From Patescibacteria group bacterium (GTDB lineage: Bacteria > Patescibacteriota > Minisyncoccia > Minisyncoccales > JAHCRE01), in contig JAHCRE010000016.1 of assembly GCA_020148145.1 (NCBI GenBank), positions 164,827-228,826 of the forward strand: a DNA stretch of 64,000 nt. Reading direction: 5' to 3'. The translations under genes and the position numbers were made by a program. Numbering within the stretch: position 1 is the first letter of the stretch; each line of letters begins with the position of its first letter. The notes beneath the pieces are model-generated. The model had not been told where the DNA came from. It made no database searches and saw nothing but the letters and a program-made list of their open reading frames with translations. Shown here one piece after another: positions 2,665 to 41,710 of this stretch.

Positions 2665-3610
2665 TCATTTTTTTAAGACCCTCCTCCAGAGATACCTTCG
2701 GATAAAAATTAAGAAGTTTAATCATTTTTCCTACCTCTGGAAAACGATGTCTTACGTCTATATCTATTTTTCTATTCTTTACCAATCTGGGTTTAATTTT
2801 TCCTTCAAGACCGACTAAATTAATTATTTCGGTCGCTAAATCAAAAATTGTTAAAGGCCTACCGCTACCAATATTTATTATCTGACCACTGGTTTTCTCT
2901 AATTTCATTGCTCGCCAAGATGCCTCTACATTATCATCAATAAAAGTAAAATCTCTTGTCTGACGCCCATCGCCAAATACTGTTGGAGACTGACCAGATA
3001 AAACCTGCCTTATAAATATCCCCACCACAAAACCATAATCACTTCCGTCCTGCCTAGGACCGTAAACATTGAAGAATCTCAAAGAACAAGTTTTTAGGTT
3101 ATGTTTATAATAATAAGCCTCTAAAAATTTTTCTCCTATTAGTTTAACGGCAGCGTAAGGTATCTGTGGATTTATTGCTCCCTCTTCTTTTTCTGGCAGC
3201 TCTCTAGACTCTCCGTAAACCTCGGAGCTGGAGGCAAAAACAACTTTGGGTCTACCATATTTTAGTGATAGTTCTAGGATATTTTTAATTCCTTCTGCAT
3301 CTTTCAATACCATCAAAGGATTCTCAAGAGTTCTTTTTACTCCAACTGTAGCTGCATAATGAAATACTCCATTAAATTTATATTTTCTAAAAATAAGGGA
3401 AATATCTTTAATTTGGTTTATATCTCCTTTAATAAAAACGAAATTCGGATTTTTTTTAATTGTTAAAATATTTTTTAAGGTCCCGGTACTTAAATTGTCA
3501 AAACAGACAACCTTGTGTCCTATTTTTATTAGCTTTTCACATAAATGAGATCCAATAAATCCTGCTCCACCGGTAACTAAAAATGTTTTTTTATTTTTGT
3601 TTTTTTGCAT
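2642..3610 (-). CDS. NAD-dependent sugar epimerase/dehydratase (UDP-glucuronate decarboxylase / UXS-like SDR)
   Basis: TGGAGFIGSHLCEKL Rossmann motif and extended SDR features; 322 aa. Confidence 0.8.
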   Translation of the reverse strand: MQKNKNKKTFLVTGGAGFIGSHLCEKLIKIGHKVVCFDNLSTGTLKNILTIKKNPNFVFIKGDINQIKDISLIFRKYKFNGVFHYAATVGVKRTLENPLMVLKDAEGIKNILELSLKYGRPKVVFASSSEVYGESRELPEKEEGAINPQIPYAAVKLIGEKFLEAYYYKHNLKTCSLRFFNVYGPRQDGSDYGFVVGIFIRQVLSGQSPTVFGDGRQTRDFTFIDDNVEASWRAMKLEKTSGQIINIGSGRPLTIFDLATEIINLVGLEGKIKPRLVKNRKIDIDVRHRFPEVGKMIKLLNFYPKVSLEEGLKKMIDWYKNG

Positions 3611-4388
3611 ATTTCAAAATTAAATTCAGGGCTTTATTCTTGCAATATTTCTTAAGTATTGTGGCGTTTTCGCAAATACAGTGTCCACCAATGCCGCCTT
3701 TTGGAGGATAAAGAACTGGCCGAACAACATTCTTCTTACCCAACTTTTTATATCCTTCATTATAGGTTCTGTTAAACTCAGTTACCGCTTTTTCAAAATC
3801 AACCCCGGCCTTATCACAAATTTTTTTCATTTCTCCGTGCCAGGCAATACAAAGACCATAATAAGAAGTACTAAAGAGTTTTCCTATTTCAACGATTACC
3901 GATGGCTGAAATATCCTTGTTTTTATTCCCAGGCTTTCTAAATGTTTTTTGGCTAATTGACCTGCTTTTTTATTCTCGGTACCAATATATTTTACGAATG
4001 TTTTAATTCCTTCGTAAAGATAAGGATGAACTCCCCTTACCGGGCTGTAAACTATCATCTTCAGTTCTTTAGGTAAGGCTGAAACCAATTTTTTTGTGGT
4101 GAAAGGGGCAATAGAAGAATGAATAATAGTCAACTTTGGCTTAACTTCTTTTATTTCTTTTTTAACTATTTTTATAAAATTAGGAATCCAAGGGATACAG
4201 ATATGTAAGACCTCTACCCCCTTTAATCCATCGTCCCTCTTCAAATCCTTTATTTTTACTTGCCCGCCGAAGCGTTTGCGAAGGTGGGGACTCTTGTAGA
4301 ATTTAGCTAAAGCTCGACCCATTTCACCATAACCCAGTATGCCAATTTTTGATTTATTTTTTTTAGTCATAGGCATAGAAATTACCAC
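3591..4388 (-). CDS. NAD(P)-binding dehydrogenase-like protein, possibly a UDP-sugar-dehydrogenase-like enzyme
   Basis: N-terminal IGILGYGEMGRA dinucleotide-binding motif; a GGIGGHCICE segment is reminiscent of the catalytic Cys region of UDP-glucose dehydrogenase; overlaps the downstream gene. Confidence 0.4.
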   Translation of the reverse strand: MVISMPMTKKNKSKIGILGYGEMGRALAKFYKSPHLRKRFGGQVKIKDLKRDDGLKGVEVLHICIPWIPNFIKIVKKEIKEVKPKLTIIHSSIAPFTTKKLVSALPKELKMIVYSPVRGVHPYLYEGIKTFVKYIGTENKKAGQLAKKHLESLGIKTRIFQPSVIVEIGKLFSTSYYGLCIAWHGEMKKICDKAGVDFEKAVTEFNRTYNEGYKKLGKKNVVRPVLYPPKGGIGGHCICENATILKKYCKNKALNLILKYAKKQK

Positions 4389-4392
4389 CCCG

Positions 4393-4713
4393 TTAGAAAC
4401 CTTTAGCGAAAAAGGATTTTAATCTATTTTTTAGATATCTTCTACCCATTCCTGATTTAAGGTATTTTTCTCTTGCTTGGGCATCCTTTCTATTTAAACC
4501 GGCCTCATAATAGATGAGTTTCCATGGGATTCCATATTTAGTAGACCTATTCTTGCCCGAATTATGTGTTAAAATTCTTTTTCGCAAATCTTTGGTTGAA
4601 CCAATATACCAATCTCCTTTATTACTTTGTAAAACATAAATATACCACACCCCGTTAGAGATTACAAAGATAAAGAGAAAACACAGAGAAAACAAGTCTC
4701 TAACGGGGCACAT
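4393..4713 (-). CDS. Small GIY-YIG nuclease-family protein (YhbQ/UPF0213-like)
   Basis: WYIYVLQSNKGDWYIGSTKDLRKRILTHNSG...KDAQAREKYLK matches the GIY-YIG motifs. The ORF lies exactly between the 13-bp inverted repeats ccccgttagaaac (4385-4397) and gtttctaacgggg (4717-4729). Confidence 0.8.
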   Translation of the reverse strand: MCPVRDLFSLCFLFIFVISNGVWYIYVLQSNKGDWYIGSTKDLRKRILTHNSGKNRSTKYGIPWKLIYYEAGLNRKDAQAREKYLKSGMGRRYLKNRLKSFFAKGF

Positions 4714-4731
4714 AAACGGTTTCTAACGGGG

Positions 4732-4977
4732 CTACCATTTCTCAATGGTTTTTTTGGTTTTTCGTTTGAGGCGCTGATAAAAATTTACCGCCTTTCTCTC
4801 GACCTTTGGAGAAACTAATCTTAAAATTTCTTTCCCCCAGATTCTATATCTTCCCCCAACTTTGTTTGCCCGGATTATTCCGTTTTTTAGGAAACGCTTA
4901 ATAGTGCTGCTACTTATTTTCAAAAAATCTCGGGCTTCTTTAGTTGTGTAAACCTCATTTGGTTTTATTTCTTCCAT
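4732..4977 (-). CDS. Excisionase/MerR-type helix-turn-helix DNA-binding protein (HTH_17-like)
   Basis: EVYTTKEARDFLKISSSTIKRFLKNGIIRANKVGGRYRIWGKEIL resembles the Xis-family HTH. The start was moved to the internal MEEIKP; the track ORF extends to 5022. Confidence 0.55.
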   Translation of the reverse strand: MEEIKPNEVYTTKEARDFLKISSSTIKRFLKNGIIRANKVGGRYRIWGKEILRLVSPKVERKAVNFYQRLKRKTKKTIEKW

Positions 4978-5079: not shown

Positions 5080-5838
5080 TTACTTTTTTAATTTTCTTCC
5101 ATAGCTTTCTGTTTTGTAATGACAATTTCTGCAAAGGGTTATTCCATTCGAAATATCCAAAACTAAAGAAGGATATCTTGATACTGGTTTAATGTGATGT
5201 ACTTCCATAACTCTTTTTTCCCTAAATCTTATGCCACATTTTTGGCAGGTGTAATTATCACGTTCTAAAATTTTCTTGGCCCAATTCTTTAATTCTACTC
5301 TTAGTCTATGTGCTAATGTCTCTTCTCTTTTGGTTAAACCTCCTTTCCAATTTGGATTCTTGGAACCTAGGTGTTTTTCAATATATTCTTTATTTTGCCA
5401 AAGTTTTTTAATAATATTGCTTATTTTATTTCTTATTTCCAGATTATCTCTATATTGCTTTAGCTTTGTCTCTCTTATTTTGTTTTTTATAGCTTCTGAG
5501 AGCTGCTTTCCCCAATTAGGGTGTTTCGGTCCTCTAATTGCTTCACTTATCTTTCGTTTTGTCTCCCCTAAGAGTCTTTTTCCTTTTTGAGCTTGACTAA
5601 TTTTTTTTCTTGTTTCTTCGGAATGATGCTTGCCCAACATTAATGGTTTTCTTTTCCCTTCTCTCCATTGCCTTTTCATGGCTTCACTAATATTCCTTCT
5701 ATGTTCTTCTGAAAATTTTCTACCTTTCATTGCCAAACTTGTTTTCTCTCGTTCTTTCTCATCTTTATATCTTTCTTTCTGAGCTAAACTCATTTTTCTT
5801 TTGTATTCGTTAGTTCTTATGTATACTCCAGTTGGCAT
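5080..5838 (-). CDS. HNH homing-type endonuclease with repeated NUMOD3 DNA-binding motifs
   Basis: Repeated G(K/R)xxSEEx(R/K)xKIS motifs (NUMOD3) and a C-terminal HHIKPVSRYPSLVLDISNGITLCRNCH HNH motif. The start is placed at the internal MPTGVY so that it does not overlap the upstream gene. Confidence 0.75.
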   Translation of the reverse strand: MPTGVYIRTNEYKRKMSLAQKERYKDEKEREKTSLAMKGRKFSEEHRRNISEAMKRQWREGKRKPLMLGKHHSEETRKKISQAQKGKRLLGETKRKISEAIRGPKHPNWGKQLSEAIKNKIRETKLKQYRDNLEIRNKISNIIKKLWQNKEYIEKHLGSKNPNWKGGLTKREETLAHRLRVELKNWAKKILERDNYTCQKCGIRFREKRVMEVHHIKPVSRYPSLVLDISNGITLCRNCHYKTESYGRKLKK

Positions 5839-5845
5839 ATTATTT

Positions 5846-6595
5846 TTATTTCCATTTACGAATTGCAGTTTCATAACGCTCGAAAGTTCCTGTGTCCATC
5901 CATTTACCATTAAATTTAAAACCTGTTAATTTTTTTTCTTTGGCTAATTTTGGGAAAAGGTCTTTTTCAATCATTGAAAACTTGGGGCCAGGATGATAAT
6001 TGAAAATTTCAGGGGAAAGTAAATAAAGACCAGAAGAAATATATTGAGTCGTGGATTTCTTGCCCGCCCAAGTTTTCTTTAAAATTTGGGCGGGTGAAGG
6101 TTTTTCTAAAAACTCTTGAACTAAACCATTTTTGCAAATAACAACTCCATAATCTTGAGGATTTGGAACTTTCACTAAAGCTATGGTTGCCGGGGTTTTC
6201 TTTTTTTGATGGAAATTTTTCATTTCAAATAATTTTATCTTTTTTAACTCATCACCATTAGTAAAAAAGAATGGTTCGGCGGGCTCACCACTAGGTGACC
6301 CTTTAGAAAGCCAATCTTTTAAATAAAAAAGGCCTCCAAAAGTTCCCAGAGGCTTTTTTTCTTCAAATATCTTAATTTTTTCTTTAGGATAATATCTTTT
6401 TTTCCACCAATCAAAATCTTCCCGGAAATCTCTATTAATTAAAATAGCTATTTTTTTTATTCCGTAAGAATGAAAGAGGTCAACCAAATGATTTAAAATG
6501 GGTTTTCTTTTTATTGGCAAAAGGGGTTTTGGTAACTCTTTAGTTATTGGATAAAGTCGAGATCCCGCCCCTCCGGCCAAGATTACTGCTTTCAT
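5846..6595 (-). CDS. Sugar-phosphate nucleotidyltransferase (glucose-1-P thymidylyl/uridylyl-transferase-like)
   Basis: MKAVILAGGAGSRLYPITKELPKPLLPI is the canonical NTP-transferase N-terminus. The track ORF carries a 20-aa N-terminal extension up to 6655. Confidence 0.8.
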   Translation of the reverse strand: MKAVILAGGAGSRLYPITKELPKPLLPIKRKPILNHLVDLFHSYGIKKIAILINRDFREDFDWWKKRYYPKEKIKIFEEKKPLGTFGGLFYLKDWLSKGSPSGEPAEPFFFTNGDELKKIKLFEMKNFHQKKKTPATIALVKVPNPQDYGVVICKNGLVQEFLEKPSPAQILKKTWAGKKSTTQYISSGLYLLSPEIFNYHPGPKFSMIEKDLFPKLAKEKKLTGFKFNGKWMDTGTFERYETAIRKWK

Positions 6596-13500: not shown

Positions 13501-13537
13501 CCTAATAAGTATGACGGAAAAAATAGCCCTTTTATTA

Positions 13538-13566
13538 CACCCCGTTAGAAAATTTTTCTAACGGGG
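13538..13566. repeat. Intact perfect palindrome ccccgttagaaaatttttctaacgggg; the same 13-nt half-sites flank the GIY-YIG gene at 4385/4717
   Basis: Direct reading of the sequence; 10-bp arms plus an A/T centre. Related half-sites gtttctaacggtcg and gtttctaatggtcg also occur in repeats R1 and R2. Confidence 0.8.
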
Positions 13567-13675
13567 TTACAGTAAATTTACCCGGTAGAGCAACTTCGAC
13601 TTTCCCTTCCCAATAATTCTTGAATTCTCAGTCATACTTTGTGTTTTTCTTTTAGAAAAACACCTGTCGAAGTTG

Positions 13676-14850: not shown

Positions 14851-15030
14851 GCCCAGAGGGCTGGCCCCCGCCCTTTAGAAGAAAGGGCGGGGTTCGCTCC
14901 GCTCTTTAGACACCTCTCGGTTTCTAACGGTCGCCTAGGACGACCTGTTTTCCTACACAGAGCGATACCCAATCTCCCCGACCCCCTCTGTGCTTTTTGC
15001 TAAAATAAATTTTACCAAAAATAAAAACCT
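14851..15030. repeat. R1: ~175-bp GC-rich structured repeat, 98% identical to R2
   Basis: Near-identical to 16281-16465. Contains the hairpins ccagccc/gggctgg and ccccgcccttt...aaagggcgggg, a gtttctaacgg half-site and a terminator-like cacagag...ctctgtgcttttt. Confidence 0.85.
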
Positions 15031-16280: not shown

Positions 16281-16465
16281 GCCAGAGGGCTGGCCCCCGC
16301 CCTTTTGAAGAAAGGGCGGGGTTCGCTCCGCTCTTTAGACACCTCTCGGTTTCTAATGGTCGCCTAGGACGACCTGTTTTCCTACACAGAGCGATACCCA
16401 ATCTCCCCGACCCCCTCTGTGCTTTTTGCTAAAATAAATTTTACCAAAAAATAAAAAAGAGGTCA
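16281..16465. repeat. R2: second copy of the ~175-bp GC-rich structured repeat
   Basis: See R1; differs from R1 at only 3-4 positions. Confidence 0.85.
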
Positions 16466-20810: not shown

Positions 20811-20941
20811 CTCCTTTTAAAAGAACAATATAGAAATATTAGCAAAATTAAAAAACTTGTCAAGTCAACCAAAACCCCGAGAAAAACACTCGGGGCGGAA
20901 ATAAAAAAAAGAGGCAAAAATAAGAGAGTTGCCTCTATTGT

Positions 20942-21677: not shown

Positions 21678-22121
21678 CTCCTTTTATTTTTAAAGAACGG
21701 TTTGGAGGTTCAAGGAATTGCACCTTGATTAATCTCAACTTGAGACCTCCACAAAATAAAAAACTAGCTCCTCAGTCTGAGGATCTAGTTTGATTTTATT
21801 ATTGATTAAGTTAGTATTCTAATTTTTCTAAATACAAACTCCCCAGACTAAGTTCTGCTAGTAAATTAACTGACATCATTTGTAAATTGTCTGAGAAGTT
21901 TCTCATATTACTAATTTTAGATGTTATATCAGAGAAGGTACCTTGTCAAGTCAAATCCAAAGAAAAACTCTCGGGGGCTGGCGGCTCCCCAGGGTGGACG
22001 TAATCAGAACTTGGTTTTGGGAGAGGTTTCCAACTCCAGAGATAGTAAAATTACCTACTACCACCCCATTTAAATAGGCGCCCAAACTACTCCTTTAAAA
22101 CTTTGTGTTTTTTAACAATTT

Positions 22122-28518: not shown

Positions 28519-28561
28519 ATAATTTTATTATTAAACTTACATTCCGACCTTTCGTTTCTAT

Positions 28562-28760
28562 TCTACCAAAAAACCGCCTTCTTGGCAATTAGAGACGGTG
28601 GGTCTACCCGAGAAAAACTCTTGGGCAGCGGCTCCGGCGGTAGGACTCGAACCCCTCTCGGTCGCCCTAGCGCTATAGGCGTCTCGGTCTCCAGAACGAG
28701 CTCACTGGCTCCGAGGGTGGGACGTAATCAGAACTTGGTTTTGGGAGAGATTTCCTTGTT
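28562..28760. repeat. GC-rich mosaic intergenic element containing a tRNA-3'-end-like ggctccggcggtaggactcgaaccc module and a gacgtaatcagaacttggttttgggagag module
   Basis: The 35-nt gacgtaatcagaacttggttttgggagag is shared exactly with 22001-22040; the tRNA-like module is shared with 35060 and 41680. Confidence 0.6.
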
Positions 28761-28860: not shown

Positions 28861-30210
28861 CTACTCTCCCGGTACGGTTTTATCGAAAAATAGTACGCCG
28901 CCACCACCTGTCCCACCGGCCACCATATAGTTTCCATCTGAAGAAATACAAGCGTGTCCCATACTCATAGGGGTAGGAATGGGAAAATCCTCGTGGGACA
29001 TTAGCAAAGTTGAATATTCCCACAAAGGAACACTGCTGTCTCTCTGAAAAAAATAACAACCAAACTCACCTACTGCCGCTATATGCTTACCATCAGCAGA
29101 AATAGCAACGGAACTAACGGTAGCTCCAGTGTTAGAATCAGAGGCATAACTCCAGAGAGGAACACTACTGTCTTTCTTGAACAAATAAACGGTGCTGCTG
29201 TTAGCCTCATCTCCGTATCTGAAAGCAGATACTGCTAAATATTTGCCATCTGAAGATAGGGATACAGAACAGTAATCACATTCTAATGGATAAGTCCAAA
29301 GCGGCGTGCCAGAATCTTTGCTAAAAAAGTACAACTTATTTGAGCTTCCTGCTGCTACATAATTACCGTCTGAAGATATGGAAATGGAATAGAGGTCAAA
29401 ATTTTTCGCTCCACCCGTTTTATAGCTCCATAAAGGCGCAGCAATTAGACCAACGGGTCTCTGACCTATGATTTCGGCATCTCTTTCGAACAAATATATC
29501 CTTTGCTGATCCGCCAAACTCGGACAAACTGCTGCCACATAATTGCCATCTGAGGATATTGATGTCTCGACTCGAGACAGGTTAAAATCAGCAAGTTCAC
29601 GGCTCCATAATATCTGGCCATCTTTTGAAACCAAAAAAAGCTCACCATAATTCTCCATACCTACTGCTATGTAATCTCCATCAGCCGAAATGGAAACAGA
29701 ACGAAGGGGAACCCACTCATCTTCCTCGAGGTCAAAAGGACGAAGGCCCTTAATCCATAAAGGAGTAGGATTATCTTTCTGAAAGAAGTAAAGCTTGCCA
29801 TCGGTAACAGCAAAAGTGCCCACTGCGATATAATTGCCATCCGGAGAAATGGAGACTGATTGGACTTCAAGGTCATCAACTTGATAATTCCACAGAGGGA
29901 TAGAACTGTCTTTTTCGAAGAAAAGAACATTGTCTGGCCCATAGGCGTCGGAAGCTCCAGCTACTATATAATTTCCATCTAAAGACATTGAGATACCACC
30001 CTCATTCAGGCCCCCATAGGCAATCCAATCCTCTGTAAAATACCACCACAACGGCTCTTTTTCAGTCTTTTTCTCAGCCTCTTCTTCAACTTTTCCGTTC
30101 GATGGAACCGCGCCTTCTTCTTCTACTTTTTTCTCCCCACATCCAGCACCTACCAAAACTAAGACAACTAAAAGTAAAAACAGAACAAAAAATTTTAACT
30201 TGTTTTTCAT
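28861..30210 (-). CDS. Lipoprotein with beta-propeller repeats (WD40-like/PD40-like blades)
   Basis: Lipobox LVGAGC, then at least 8 repeats of about 45 aa containing S(I/V)SIS(A/S)DGNY(I/V)A(A/V)G and LW(N/S)Y. Confidence 0.6.
   Translation of the reverse strand: MKNKLKFFVLFLLLVVLVLVGAGCGEKKVEEEGAVPSNGKVEEEAEKKTEKEPLWWYFTEDWIAYGGLNEGGISMSLDGNYIVAGASDAYGPDNVLFFEKDSSIPLWNYQVDDLEVQSVSISPDGNYIAVGTFAVTDGKLYFFQKDNPTPLWIKGLRPFDLEEDEWVPLRSVSISADGDYIAVGMENYGELFLVSKDGQILWSRELADFNLSRVETSISSDGNYVAAVCPSLADQQRIYLFERDAEIIGQRPVGLIAAPLWSYKTGGAKNFDLYSISISSDGNYVAAGSSNKLYFFSKDSGTPLWTYPLECDYCSVSLSSDGKYLAVSAFRYGDEANSSTVYLFKKDSSVPLWSYASDSNTGATVSSVAISADGKHIAAVGEFGCYFFQRDSSVPLWEYSTLLMSHEDFPIPTPMSMGHACISSDGNYMVAGGTGGGGVLFFDKTVPGE
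30074..30196. repeat. About 123-bp exact direct repeat, copy 1, encoding the shared lipoprotein signal peptide and linker
   Basis: Identical to 30791-30913; encodes FFVLFLLLVVLVLVGAGCGEKKVEEEGAVPSNGKVEEEAE in both genes. Confidence 0.85.
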
Positions 30211-32042: not shown

Positions 32043-33407
32043 TTACTCGCCTTCAGGCGGTTTCTCTTCTAGTAATTGTTTACAAGCTGGTTCCTGAGGA
32101 TTTTGAGTGCAATATTGTTTGCATTCCTCAGGACTAGTGCATTTCCCTTCTAATTCTGGAGGTATTACCATTTCTGGAGGCTTTCCTTCTGGAGGTTTAT
32201 ATTCGCCTTCAGGCGGTTTCTCTTCTAGTAATTGTTTACAAGCTGGTTCCTGAGGATTTTGAGTGCAATATTGTTTGCATTCCTCAGGGCTAGTGCATTT
32301 CCCTTCTAATTCTGGAGGTATTACCATTTCTGGAGGCTTTCCTTCTGGAGGCATGCCCTCTGGAGGTAGTCCCATCTCACCTTCTGAAGGCTTTGGCATA
32401 TATTTTTCAAAACAATTCTTTATTTTCTCACCAACCTCAGGACTAGGCATAAAGGTACCAGTTTGAATTTTCTCCAAAACTTCTTCTCCTACGGTTGACT
32501 TTATACATTCTAAAACTTCTGGTGGCGCTTGCTTTAATCCCTCCTGTAATTGCTGTATGCCTTCTTTCGTTTTCTGAATTTCTTCCTCAGGAATTAAATC
32601 GTGCTCCTTGGCAAAATTAAAACAAACTTCTTGATTAGCCGGGTTGTTGCAAAAAGCCTCACATTCTTCTTTACTCTGACAACCACCTGGTCCTTGGCCA
32701 CCGGTTTTTAAAAACATTTCTTTCTCCTCTGGCGTCATTAATCCAGCTTTAGAGGCAAAATCAGCACATTCTTGAAAATGAATCTTTTGAGCACAGTAAG
32801 CCTCGCATTCCTCTTTAGTCTGACAGCCGCCGGGACTTTCTCCTTTTGCCATTAAAGACACTGTTTTCTTTCCCCGGCTGCACTCTGCTGAAGATAGTAT
32901 TCCTATCTTACAAGCATAGGAGAAGCATTCTCCCATATGATCCGGCTGTGAGCAGTAGGCATCACACTTTTTTTTGGTTCTACAGTCTCCCGGAAAAGGA
33001 ATTCCAGCCAGCATAGCCTTTCTTACCAGCCTCGCTTCTGCTGCTTCGAATGGAGGTATAAGTCCGGCTTTCTCAGCAAAATCTATACATTCTTCTATTT
33101 TGGTCGGCTCTTCGCAATAAGCCTCACATTGAGTCGGGTTTGAGCATCCGCCGGGCGGCACTGCCCCCTCAGCCAAGGCTTTCATCATTTTTTTAGCTTC
33201 TGCTAATTCTTCCGGCGACAATAAGTTGTGGGCTTCAGCAAAAGATACGCACTCTTCAATGTTTTCCCAATTATCACAATAAGCCTTACATTCTTCTTCA
33301 TTCTGACAATTTCCCAATTCTTTGACCGGAAAACTAATTTGAGCAAAAACAAAAACTCCTGCTAATAGTCCGAGAATAAAAATAACTAATAAAAATGTTT
33401 TTTGCAT
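32043..33407 (-). CDS. Secreted Cys-rich repeat protein (CxxxEECxAYC modules) with a C-terminal 52-aa tandem duplication
   Basis: Signal peptide; about 8 modules of roughly 45 aa with 4 conserved Cys; the last 52 aa are duplicated exactly. Confidence 0.5.
   Translation of the reverse strand: MQKTFLLVIFILGLLAGVFVFAQISFPVKELGNCQNEEECKAYCDNWENIEECVSFAEAHNLLSPEELAEAKKMMKALAEGAVPPGGCSNPTQCEAYCEEPTKIEECIDFAEKAGLIPPFEAAEARLVRKAMLAGIPFPGDCRTKKKCDAYCSQPDHMGECFSYACKIGILSSAECSRGKKTVSLMAKGESPGGCQTKEECEAYCAQKIHFQECADFASKAGLMTPEEKEMFLKTGGQGPGGCQSKEECEAFCNNPANQEVCFNFAKEHDLIPEEEIQKTKEGIQQLQEGLKQAPPEVLECIKSTVGEEVLEKIQTGTFMPSPEVGEKIKNCFEKYMPKPSEGEMGLPPEGMPPEGKPPEMVIPPELEGKCTSPEECKQYCTQNPQEPACKQLLEEKPPEGEYKPPEGKPPEMVIPPELEGKCTSPEECKQYCTQNPQEPACKQLLEEKPPEGE
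32048..32350. repeat. Tandem direct repeat (2 x about 156 bp) within a CDS
   Basis: cgccttcaggcggtttctcttctagtaattgtttacaagctgg... is repeated with 1-2 mismatches. Confidence 0.85.
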
Positions 33408-34924: not shown

Positions 34925-35130
34925 TAAAAAACCGCCGAAATGGCGATTAATTATGGTAACTCAGCCCCGAACATGGTTCGATATCCTAGCGGGGTATGGG
35001 GATATTTTTTCTCGAACCTTTCAAAAATATGAGGCCTTTCGGTCTCCCGAAAGGTCTCACTAGCCTGCTCCGGGGGCAGGACTCGAACCCCTCTCGGTCG
35101 CCCTGTCAGGATAGGCGTCTCGATCTCTTA
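34925..35130. other. Conserved GC-rich structured leader-like element, copy A (about 130-nt core plus tRNA-3'-end-like module plus ctcggtcgccct module), ending in a terminator hairpin abutting the BNR gene start
   Basis: Alignable with 36783-36945 and 41545-41710. Contains ggttcgat...tctcgaac long-range stems and gcaggactcgaacccc. Confidence 0.7.
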
Positions 35131-36782: not shown

Positions 36783-36945
36783 AAAAATCGTCGCGATGAC
36801 GATTTTTTCTTTGTTCGGAAAAGTTCGATTTCCTAGCGGGGTAGGACGATATTGTCTCGAACTTTTTCTGAAAATAAGATGGGGCTCGGTCACTCGAACC
36901 GAGCACTAGCCTGCTCCCCCTATTGGACGCGTTCAGAACTATTGA
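36783..36945. other. Conserved GC-rich structured leader-like element, copy B, immediately upstream of the PHP phosphatase gene
   Basis: See copy A; the terminator-like hairpin cgtcgcgatgacg plus T-run lies 15 nt from the start codon. Confidence 0.7.
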
Positions 36946-37869: not shown

Positions 37870-38010
37870 CAAAAAGTCAAGCCCCGAGAAAAACTCTCGG
37901 GGCGGGCGGCTCCCCAGGTCGGTCTGGAACCCAGATTTAAAGGGGAAATTAGGCGATTTTGAGAGTTCCAAATAACGCCCCTCGGTCGGGGCGTTTTTTC
38001 GAAAAATGAG
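37870..38010. repeat. GC-rich mosaic intergenic element (ccccgagaaaaactctcgggg terminator module plus ggtctggaaccc...aggggaaattagg module plus gcccctcggtcggggcgtttttt terminator)
   Basis: Homologous to 38535-38625 and shares modules with the 20.4-24.3 kb and 28.6 kb islands. Confidence 0.6.
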
Positions 38011-38459: not shown

Positions 38460-38700
38460 TTCTACCAAAAAACCGCCTCTGAGGCGATTTTTGCATGTGG
38501 CCACTCGGTCGCCCTGACGCCTAGGGCCCCTCGGTCTCATGCTCCCCTAGTTGGTCTCGAACCTACGGTTTAAGGGGAAAATTAGGGCTTTTTGAGGGTG
38601 TCCCACAATGCGTCTCGGTCGGGGTGTTTTAAAGCTAAAATGAGACAAATGAGACACTACTTTAGGGTATTTTTAGTGTCTCGTTTTGAATGATTTTCTC
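38460..38700. repeat. GC-rich mosaic intergenic element (tctaccaaaaaaccgcc module plus ctcggtcgccct-N-ctcggtctc module plus ggtctcgaacc...aaggggaaaattagg module)
   Basis: Its modules recur at 28562, 28650, 35090 and 37920. Confidence 0.6.
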
Positions 38701-41544: not shown

Positions 41545-41710
41545 AAACGCTTTTCCCTTAGTGGACGAAAGCGATTTTTTTGTTCGTGAAAGTTCGATGT
41601 CCAGTCAGGGTACGGCGATTGTTTCTCGAATTTTTTCCAAAATTAAGTGGGAATCGGTCTCTCGAACCGAGCTCAAGCTGGCTCCGGCGGCAGGACTCGA
41701 ACCCAAACAA
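41545..41710. other. Conserved GC-rich structured leader-like element, copy C, upstream of the AT-rich three-gene operon
   Basis: See copies A and B; ends in gctccggcggcaggactcgaaccc. Confidence 0.7.

Follow-up and report, generated by a model that had tools for sequence, protein, structure and literature searches.

Why does a single-domain nuclease gene lie between the two arms of a split palindrome in the genome of a Patescibacteria group bacterium? The question is raised by a 64,000-nucleotide (nt) stretch of contig JAHCRE010000016.1, here called the window, whose sole GIY-YIG protein is encoded on the minus strand at 4393-4713, enclosed by perfect inverted repeats. The answer proposed here, as probable rather than certain, is that positions 4388-4731 hold one copy of a family of ultra-compact mobile elements whose GIY-YIG nuclease is their own enzyme. 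It fits best within the theme of hairpin repeats combined with GIY-YIG genes, as a mini-element that is bounded by repeats, carries its own nuclease and bears transposon hallmarks not reported there so far.

The repeats have in common a 10-mer core, CCCCGTTAGA, which occurs six times in the window as three inverted pairs; 0.08 occurrences are expected, and none of 100 dinucleotide-preserving shuffles of the window reached six. The outer pair, CCCCGTTAGAAAC at 4388-4400 on the plus strand with its complement at 4719-4731, is in fact a perfect repeat of 14 bp (4388-4401 and 4718-4731). A first-pass annotation of the same DNA had described 13-bp terminal inverted repeats (TIRs) at 4385-4397 and 4717-4729 around the open reading frame (ORF); the repeats are present 2-5 nt away from these positions, and the ORF lies on the minus strand exactly where it had been placed. 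The nested inner pair that it mentioned is located at 4650-4661 and 4697-4708 (the first arm had been given as 4645), and the abutting palindrome that it saw elsewhere is a 27-nt sequence at 13540-13566. Its statement that a 13-mer recurs at least six times, beyond chance, holds for a core of 10-12 nt; the 13-mer in its exact form is found just twice, and at position 13 the solo palindrome departs from the outer pair (AAAA versus AAAC). A relationship of the half-sites reported inside two 175-nt repeats could not be demonstrated. At 14920-14932 and, in the second copy, at about 16348, 12 nt are in common with the element repeat, but the invariant CCC is broken (GACCGTTAGAAAC) and there is no partner arm, so they were not counted as part of the family.

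The complete unit (4388-4731, minus strand) measures 344 bp, made up of a canonical element of about 281 bp, a nested element of 59 bp and a 4-bp duplication. In gene orientation, the left TIR, CCCCGTTAGAAACC (4718-4731), directly follows the TAG stop codon of an HTH_17 gene and is succeeded by a spacer, CGTTT, the sequence ATGTG, the 59-bp inner unit, TG TGG TAT and the remainder of the ORF. The right TIR, GGTTTCTAACGGGG (4388-4401), encodes the last nuclease codons, GGT TTC, and the TAA stop (4395-4393); the 3' end of the ORF thus reads AAA GGT TTC TAA CGGGG, followed by TGGTAATTTCT and the ATG of a dehydrogenase-like gene.

The nested element (4650-4708, minus strand) is gene-less, with 12-bp arms, CCCCGTTAGAGA and TCTCTAACGGGG, and an interior of 35 nt. 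Its 4-bp target duplication, CACA on the plus strand and TGTG in gene orientation, is found at 4646-4649 and 4709-4712. It was inserted at the start codon of the nuclease gene (ATGTG/../TGTGG, a slash marking the junction), and as 59 + 4 = 63 nt, the frame was kept. The 106-codon ORF at 4393-4713 accordingly begins at the original ATG and runs in-frame through the nested element, and an 85-codon ORF (MWYIYVLQ..AKGF; 4393-4650, minus strand) can be read from a GTG at 4650-4648. Removal of the nested element with one copy of its duplication gives CCCCGTTAGAAACCGTTTATGTGGTAT, which matches CCCCGTTAGAAACCTGTTTATGTGG of the canonical element L022. A separate nested gene-less insertion, in a different unit (L008), occupies the same ATGTG/G site.

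The 85-amino-acid product matches PF01541 with 56.7 bits (cut-off 22.6, E = 3e-15) and has no further domain; an identical product is annotated at NCBI (P0001). Residues Y3/Y5, Y15, G17, R25, H29, N30, E61 and N75, which include the conserved catalytic residues of the GIY-YIG superfamily, are invariant in 26 homologs including the window protein, and the ORF is under purifying selection, with a ratio of non-synonymous to synonymous substitution rates (dN/dS) of about 0.11 among homologs. An AlphaFold 2 model (predicted local distance difference test score 83) has the superfamily's fold, a three-stranded sheet plus helices, and retrieved the UPF0213 protein BH0048 and Slx1 in Foldseek with probability 1.0. 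By both sequence and fold, the closest solved relatives are UPF0213 proteins (BH0048, EF2693) and the structure-specific nuclease Slx1. Homologs number in the thousands, the top matches being 73-86% identical and, where the source is named, from Patescibacteria; the family forms 2,090 clusters (50% identity, E <= 1e-10). Searches of viral sequences returned only four distant relatives (42-49% identity), none with the repeats, and a tblastn search of plasmids only YazA-like matches and an unrelated small-plasmid protein without repeats. The longer gene calls among the homologs begin with MNPVRN or end in ..VSNGV, which is the translated repeat.

A family of repeat-bounded units

Homologs down to 58% amino-acid identity were followed at 80 loci on contigs of species-representative genomes, mostly from Patescibacteria, with about 12 loci from outside this group. 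At these loci, 69 homolog units (58-84% identity, 273-332 bp) are bracketed by YCCCGTTAGA... and ...TCTAACGGGR in unrelated contexts. The canonical unit of about 275-290 bp consists of a 13-bp perfect TIR, YCCCGTTAGARRY, a spacer of 4-12 nt and an 85-codon GIY-YIG ORF that ends in or at the right repeat. In close homologs of the GAAAC type, the stop codon (TAA) lies inside the right repeat, and in those of the GAGA type the ORF runs through the repeat to a TGA at the junction. An alignment of GIY-YIG paralogs with their flanks, as the first-pass annotation had proposed, places the end of similarity at the repeats: in 12 aligned elements it starts and stops there, and copies within and between genomes are alike only up to these borders.

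A logo of 93 elements shows positions 2-10 of the repeat (CCCGTTAGA) to be invariant, and positions 1 and 11-13 to vary with Watson-Crick compensation. Each of positions 1-13 forms a Watson-Crick pair in 87-93 of the 93 elements, with 0-2 G.T pairs per position, and pairing decays past position 14. No Rfam family matched at gathering or permissive thresholds.

The cargo of these repeats is exclusive. A search of 1.74 Mb, in which about 270 paired elements lie, found none of 450-6000 bp that has these ends, which leaves the GIY-YIG ORF as the only protein cargo. This sole ORF encodes a GIY-YIG domain and belongs to no recognised transposase class (DDE, HUH, serine, tyrosine or Cas1).

More distant GIY-YIG paralogs (34-51% identity; the second match of L002, L041, L050 and L051/L056) lie in units of 254-303 bp that are enclosed by other perfect repeats, 12-20 bp long. 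Their private repeats are ACCGAGCACATAAC (L002 type), ACCCATCACTAACTTTTGAT, ACCCCCACACCA and TAAATTTTAATCTTTC. Since other GIY-YIG subfamilies have repeats of their own, the gene-in-palindrome architecture is general and not limited to CCCGTTAGA. Repeat subtype follows protein clade in a raw comparison that is not corrected for phylogeny.

An integron origin was considered as well, prompted by an attC-like repeat core and by four elements located inside integrase genes. The idea was abandoned: GTTAGAA/TTCTAAC resembles GTTRRRY/RYYYAAC only partly, and in the small-ORF arrays of L092-L101 the motif brackets GIY-YIG genes only.

Besides the gene-bearing units, 812 kb of the homolog loci contain about 30 gene-less ones of 27-133 bp, likewise bounded by repeats, whose ends and duplications are the same. 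A scan of metagenomes for short-loop palindromes yielded solo hairpins at no fewer than 120 loci. Of 122 solos scored, 64 have an exact 4-nt duplication at unrelated sites, mostly TTTA/TAAA and TTCA/TGAA, compared with 7.6% in the control.

The palindrome at 13540-13566 of the window is a hairpin-only member of 27 bp, CCCCGTTAGAAAA T TTTTCTAACGGGG (in full CCCCGTTAGAAAATTTTTCTAACGGGG), in the spacer that separates an ECF sigma-factor gene from a DUF5667 gene. As DNA it folds with -14.2 kcal/mol (z = -7.2), and it is flanked by its own duplication, the direct repeat TTACA at 13535-13539 and 13567-13571. The inner arms of the three copies in the window all differ. With its own TTACA, a different inner arm and no T-tail, this solo is a family member or a remnant and not an empty site. 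Reading the hairpins as terminators was likewise rejected, as they have no T-tail, are not called by a terminator scan and are located within ORFs as well as on start codons and at the 5' ends of tRNA genes. The first-pass annotation had named a common terminator stem with no association to GIY-YIG genes as the alternative to mobility; the association with GIY-YIG genes is instead near-universal.

Insertion and coupling to host genes

With the element ends fixed at YCCC...GGGR, 59 of the 103 repeat pairs have an exact 4-nt duplication; mismatched flanks, used as control, gave 9.8%. In the flank logo, which is symmetric, T stands at -4 and A or G at -1, which points to TNNR as the target.

At the locus in the window, insertion can be read from orthologs. 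The closest homologs of the downstream host protein (76-77% identical) are found in loci with the same synteny. At L110 and L111, the gene order is Wzy_C, NTP-transferase, two DUF genes, HTH_17, dehydrogenase-like and epimerase; the HTH_17 stop (..AACTGGTAG) is followed by 12 nt and the dehydrogenase ATG, and neither the element nor a palindrome nor the CCCGTTAG motif is nearby. Because HTH_17 adjoins the dehydrogenase-like gene there without an element, HTH_17 is native and it is the GIY-YIG unit that was inserted into the spacer. The comparison of occupied and empty sites in related genomes that the first-pass annotation had suggested hence yields an orthologous locus that is empty and has no palindrome. 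The outer direct repeat of the window copy, TACCA (TGGTA in gene orientation), lies at 4383-4387 and 4733-4737, the second copy being 1 nt (c at 4732) off the repeat end. As the TGGTAG end of HTH_17 is native in the ortholog, the copy after the element is the duplicate. A further pair of states was seen at L051 and L057, which lack a gene-less copy that is present in L056. Removing the element with its duplication also restores the reading frame of integron integrases, as GYDI/RTVQELLGH in L077 and TTMIY/THV in L061. Together, the 69 units, the duplications, the repeat-bounded similarity and the ortholog without the element support the first of the two readings originally offered, that of a miniature TIR-bounded element carrying its own GIY-YIG nuclease.

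Regarding the sites themselves, the element lies inside an integron-integrase gene at 4 of the about 12 non-Patescibacteria loci (L053, L061, L071 and L077). L071 and L077 have the same integrase site (GYDI/RTVQ) and nucleases that are 76% identical, and the integrase-gene occurrences may reflect enrichment or shared ancestry. At L104 (5001-8999), a GIY-YIG element with the duplication TTTG lies just upstream of the reverse transcriptase and bAvd gene of a diversity-generating retroelement, and a gene-less copy with the duplication TAGA lies downstream of both. Other copies occupy -35 boxes.

Many junctions are closely fitted to a host gene. In 50 of 68 units, a same-strand ORF starts 0-60 nt after the right end, and in 30 of these 50 the last base of the element, or the base 2 nt further on, is the first of its start codon (G or A plus TG, or a TATG duplication). 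A typical junction is ATGAA/C CCCGTTAG ... CTAACGGG G/TGAA, where the TAA of the element is followed by the host GTG 4 nt on; in another common one, ...CTAACGGGA/TGAA, the TGA of the element overlaps the host ATG (ATGA). At several loci, the nuclease ORF is fused in-frame to a captured host ATG. An element landing on a host start codon would take over the ribosome-binding site and ATG of the host, making its expression parasitic, while its last base (G or A) plus the duplicated TG would rebuild the start codon of the host gene. Surviving copies are co-oriented with the downstream gene, and the window copy is co-oriented with its operon.

Eight elements abut tRNA genes, all of them tRNA-Pro (L012, L047, L050, L052, L058, L060, L068 and L074). 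Here the 5' end of the tRNA is rebuilt, the terminal CGGGG or CGGGC supplying tRNA positions 1-5 and the duplication positions 6-9. G-C ends at CGGGC tRNAs occur in two protein lineages. L047 has two successive insertions at one TGTA site, and the repeats of its older GIY-YIG unit have decayed. The host-coupled junctions look like the survivorship of "self-healing" insertions.

As for the neighbourhood in the window, the host HTH_17 gene (4732-4977, minus strand; 81 amino acids from the ATG at 4977, Pfam HTH_17) is a native neighbour outside the element and is preceded by a promoter-like TTGACA-17-TATTAT (5012-4984, minus strand). The host nucleotide-sugar dehydrogenase-like gene (3591-4376, minus strand) lies downstream, with its ATG at 4376, 12 nt past the element end; an alternative start at the GTG at 4388 was given up once the ortholog had been compared. 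At 5080-5910 (minus strand), immediately behind the NTP-transferase gene, lies a free-standing gene for an HNH endonuclease, carrying three NUMOD3 motifs as is typical of homing endonucleases; in the orthologous L110 this place is taken by DUF4430 and DUF6580 genes. It resembles another selfish insertion into this operon, independent of the first.

Readings of the hairpins and of their nuclease

How such an element might move can be outlined from its structure. It would have entered the short spacer between the HTH_17 and sugar-nucleotide dehydrogenase-like genes, and a 59-bp gene-less member would later have hit the nuclease start codon. The two repeats may pair as a DNA hairpin or cruciform, as their strictly Watson-Crick pairing and compensatory changes suggest; the near-absence of G.T pairs argues for a DNA rather than an RNA structure. 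The SLX1/UPF0213-like nuclease would recognise and cut the base of this hairpin or cruciform, as biochemically characterised Ssn nucleases, also of the GIY-YIG type, do beside their hairpins in single-stranded DNA. Integration would take place at a 4-nt staggered break at TNNR and would have to be completed by host repair or ligation, because a hydrolytic nuclease cannot perform strand transfer. The gene-less hairpins would be either mobilised in trans or remnants.

On this outline, the nuclease is probably the element's own enzyme, and among self-contained transposon-like elements this one may be the smallest known. It has a substantial chance of representing a new class of transposons. A more far-reaching formulation, put forward tentatively and with somewhat less than even confidence, is that the family is the first prokaryotic transposon superfamily with a GIY-YIG nuclease as its only protein and, at about 280 bp (an 85-amino-acid enzyme and its two ends of 13 bp), the smallest autonomous mobile element known, which moves via a hairpin or cruciform and persists by "self-healing" insertions.

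Several points weigh against an autonomous element. GIY-YIG nucleases are hydrolytic and have no strand-transfer chemistry, and we know of none that transposes in prokaryotes; the part assigned to the nuclease in movement is a putative one. About 45% of the elements lack an exact duplication, and in the window the flanks (TGGTAg/element/TGGTAa) form a 5-nt repeat offset by 1 nt, which breaks the exact 4-bp rule. An empty allele of the window site gave 0 matches in metagenomes, from which the organism may be absent. The gene-less interiors are unrelated to the ORF and so are not simple deletion derivatives, and the solo hairpins could be remnants of full-length insertions that are not independently mobile. 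The terminal base pair (A, G or C) always suits the downstream host feature, for no evident reason.

There is, moreover, little sign of recent movement. The copies seem old and, within populations, hold their positions, and those in one genome mostly reach no more than about 80-85% identity. One protein is present on 24 contigs, always in the same context, and another keeps its immediate context; P0085 and P0107, whose context never changes, were discarded as proof of recent transposition. P0002, which occurs in two contexts, was discarded too, as similarity runs about 75 nt past both ends, within a larger inverted-repeat element. Identical copies in L046 and in L102/L103 likewise have extra flanking sequence in common. 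In L102 (4896-5360) and L103 (2533-2971), the identical GIY-YIG elements are nested in a larger repeat with CAAAACAGAAAAATTTTC and GAAAATTTTTCTGTTTTG at its borders, an unrelated inverted-repeat element with at least two copies in one metagenome.

One alternative, which we regard as rather unlikely, survives best of those considered. [quoted passage not shown] The hydrolytic chemistry, the age and stability of the copies and the unrelated gene-less interiors all fit this explanation, as does the presence of only 1 GIY-YIG gene in 762 kb around the solo hairpins listed (at least 120). Ssn of Neisseria, moreover, modulates transformation, not transposition (PMC11893778). A passenger is at odds, however, with the absence of any other cargo or larger element with these ends from 1.74 Mb and with the physical interlocking of ORF and repeat: down to 58% identity, every clade has its ORF end within or at the right repeat. 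The private repeats of the other GIY-YIG clades are expected for a cognate pair of enzyme and site, not for a passenger.

It is very improbable that the intact palindrome serves a GIY-YIG homing endonuclease as recognition or insertion site and that the gene copies itself into the palindrome centre, the second reading of the first-pass annotation. The ORF does lie exactly between the arms, solo palindromes with the same core exist, and the variable inner arm positions could be target-derived. At this locus, the idea is contradicted by the orthologous empty site, which has no palindrome, and elsewhere by insertions at sites without a pre-existing palindrome: start codons, -35 boxes, the 5' ends of tRNA-Pro genes and the interior of integrase ORFs. 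Each scored solo group has target duplications that belong to the solos themselves, the three window copies differ in their inner arms, and the protein has no DNA-binding domain of the I-TevI or Seg type. An equally remote proposal is a role at the RNA level on immobile DNA, either as a long stem around the ORF (RNase III processing, mRNA stability or translation control) or as terminators: the elements lie within host operons where transcribed stems would form, and the close coupling of stop and start codons between element and host gene points to a translational logic, but G.U pairs number 0-2 of 93 per position, unlike typical RNA stems, T-tails and Rfam matches are absent, and the duplications, nested copies and orthologous empty site are signatures of DNA insertion whose distribution an additional, possible RNA role does not explain.

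If the reading as a mobile element with its own nuclease is true, it sets a new lower bound for the size of an autonomous mobile element and adds GIY-YIG to the short list of prokaryotic transposition enzymes. Hairpin repeats would gain a testable origin, and the view of Ssn/NTS and REP/RAYT as domesticated insertion sequences would become an experiment. The family accounts for a very common annotation in genomes of the candidate phyla radiation, or Patescibacteria ("GIY-YIG nuclease family protein", "excinuclease ABC subunit C"), and warns of mis-called start codons and of extended N-termini, MNPVRN being an example. Each clade's pair of enzyme and 13-bp site is a candidate programmable DNA cutter specific for hairpins or single strands.

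Other repeats of the window and known systems

The window contains further repeats. A 175-nt direct repeat (14853-15027 and 16282-16456) is 98% identical between copies 1.4 kb apart, GC-rich and rich in hairpins (GGTCG..CGACC, GGGCGGGG..); it has no credible Rfam match, and its 12 nt in common with the element repeat are GGTTTCTAACGG, with the invariant core broken. Mosaic intergenic repeats lie on the minus strand at 28626-28691, 35062-35127, 37904-37932, 38501-38564 and 41676-41704, and also at 21983-22055, 36806-36878 and 41575-41647. They contain GGGTTCGAGTCC, which resembles a tRNA T-arm, and GAGACCGAG..GGGCGACCGAGAGG modules; ARAGORN found no tRNA in the whole 64 kb, and the mosaic repeats have no Rfam match even at permissive thresholds. 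Two other intergenic hairpin families are unrelated to the GIY-YIG repeat: AAACCCCGAGAAAAACTCTCGGG at 20862, 21943, 22901, 24151 and 37869, and AAAAAACCGCC....GGCGATT at 28547, 34905 and 38446. Periodic repeats inside ORFs, at 29076-30001 (units of about 120-180 nt) and 32608-33292 (about 160 nt), probably encode repeated domains of secreted or surface proteins.

No description of the GIY-YIG element was found in the literature searched, the nearest being that of Ssn (PMC11893778). Ssn proteins are single-domain GIY-YIG nucleases of about 90 amino acids that cut ssDNA next to cognate NTS/SRM hairpin repeats flanking their own genes (Chenal et al., Nat Commun 2025, PMC11893778). Their authors noted that the NTS-ssnA-NTS layout resembles an insertion sequence and compared it with REP/RAYT; Patescibacteria are not mentioned there (PMC11893778). 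The window protein, with 85 amino acids and a GIY-YIG domain only, is similar, and so are the flanking of the gene by its cognate repeat on the 5' and 3' sides, the dispersal of the repeat in many copies and the different repeats of each clade. However, the SRM motif HGTCWYN(0-2)YYVSBRHN(0-5)WNVSBRGN(0-2)RNCYNB occurs 0 times in the window and within 300 nt of 0 of the 69 units. Each flank of an Ssn gene is a hairpin of its own, whereas here the flanks are the two arms of one palindrome with the gene in its loop. The target duplications, nested copies and empty ortholog found here have no reported counterpart for Ssn, and neither has transposition.

Systems of REP sequences and REP-associated tyrosine transposases (REP/RAYT, "REPtrons") similarly combine many short palindromic hairpins with a rare gene flanked by them in inverted orientation, and recognition of an ssDNA hairpin is presumed in both. 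They differ in their Y1 HUH transposase with a covalent intermediate and in the size of the RAYT genes, about 4-5 times larger than the gene described here. To our knowledge, REPs have no 4-bp duplications. IS200/IS605 elements are also very small, with hairpin ends and gene-less palindromic derivatives, but their hairpins are subterminal and imperfect, they make no duplication, use an HUH transposase and measure at least about 700 bp.

TIRs, a short fixed duplication and abundant non-autonomous intergenic copies are typical of the Correia, RPE and ERIC MITEs and of transposons with TIRs and target-site duplications. The family has the TIRs and the fixed short duplication in common with them, yet their known partners encode DDE transposases of several hundred residues. 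The likeness to piggyBac, with 13-bp repeats beginning with CCC and a 4-bp T..A duplication (TTAA), is formal and not a matter of homology.

Among GIY-YIG enzymes, the homing endonucleases T4 Seg and I-TevI are comparable as selfish GIY-YIG genes between host genes. They have a C-terminal DNA-binding domain, one conserved target gene and spread by double-strand break repair without TIRs or duplications, in contrast to an 85-amino-acid protein with no extra domain at dozens of unrelated insertion sites. SLX1 and UPF0213 proteins are the closest in solved fold and sequence, and SLX1 cuts branched and stem-loop DNA; SLX1 is a repair enzyme with a RING domain that needs SLX4, and UPF0213 proteins are without known repeats.

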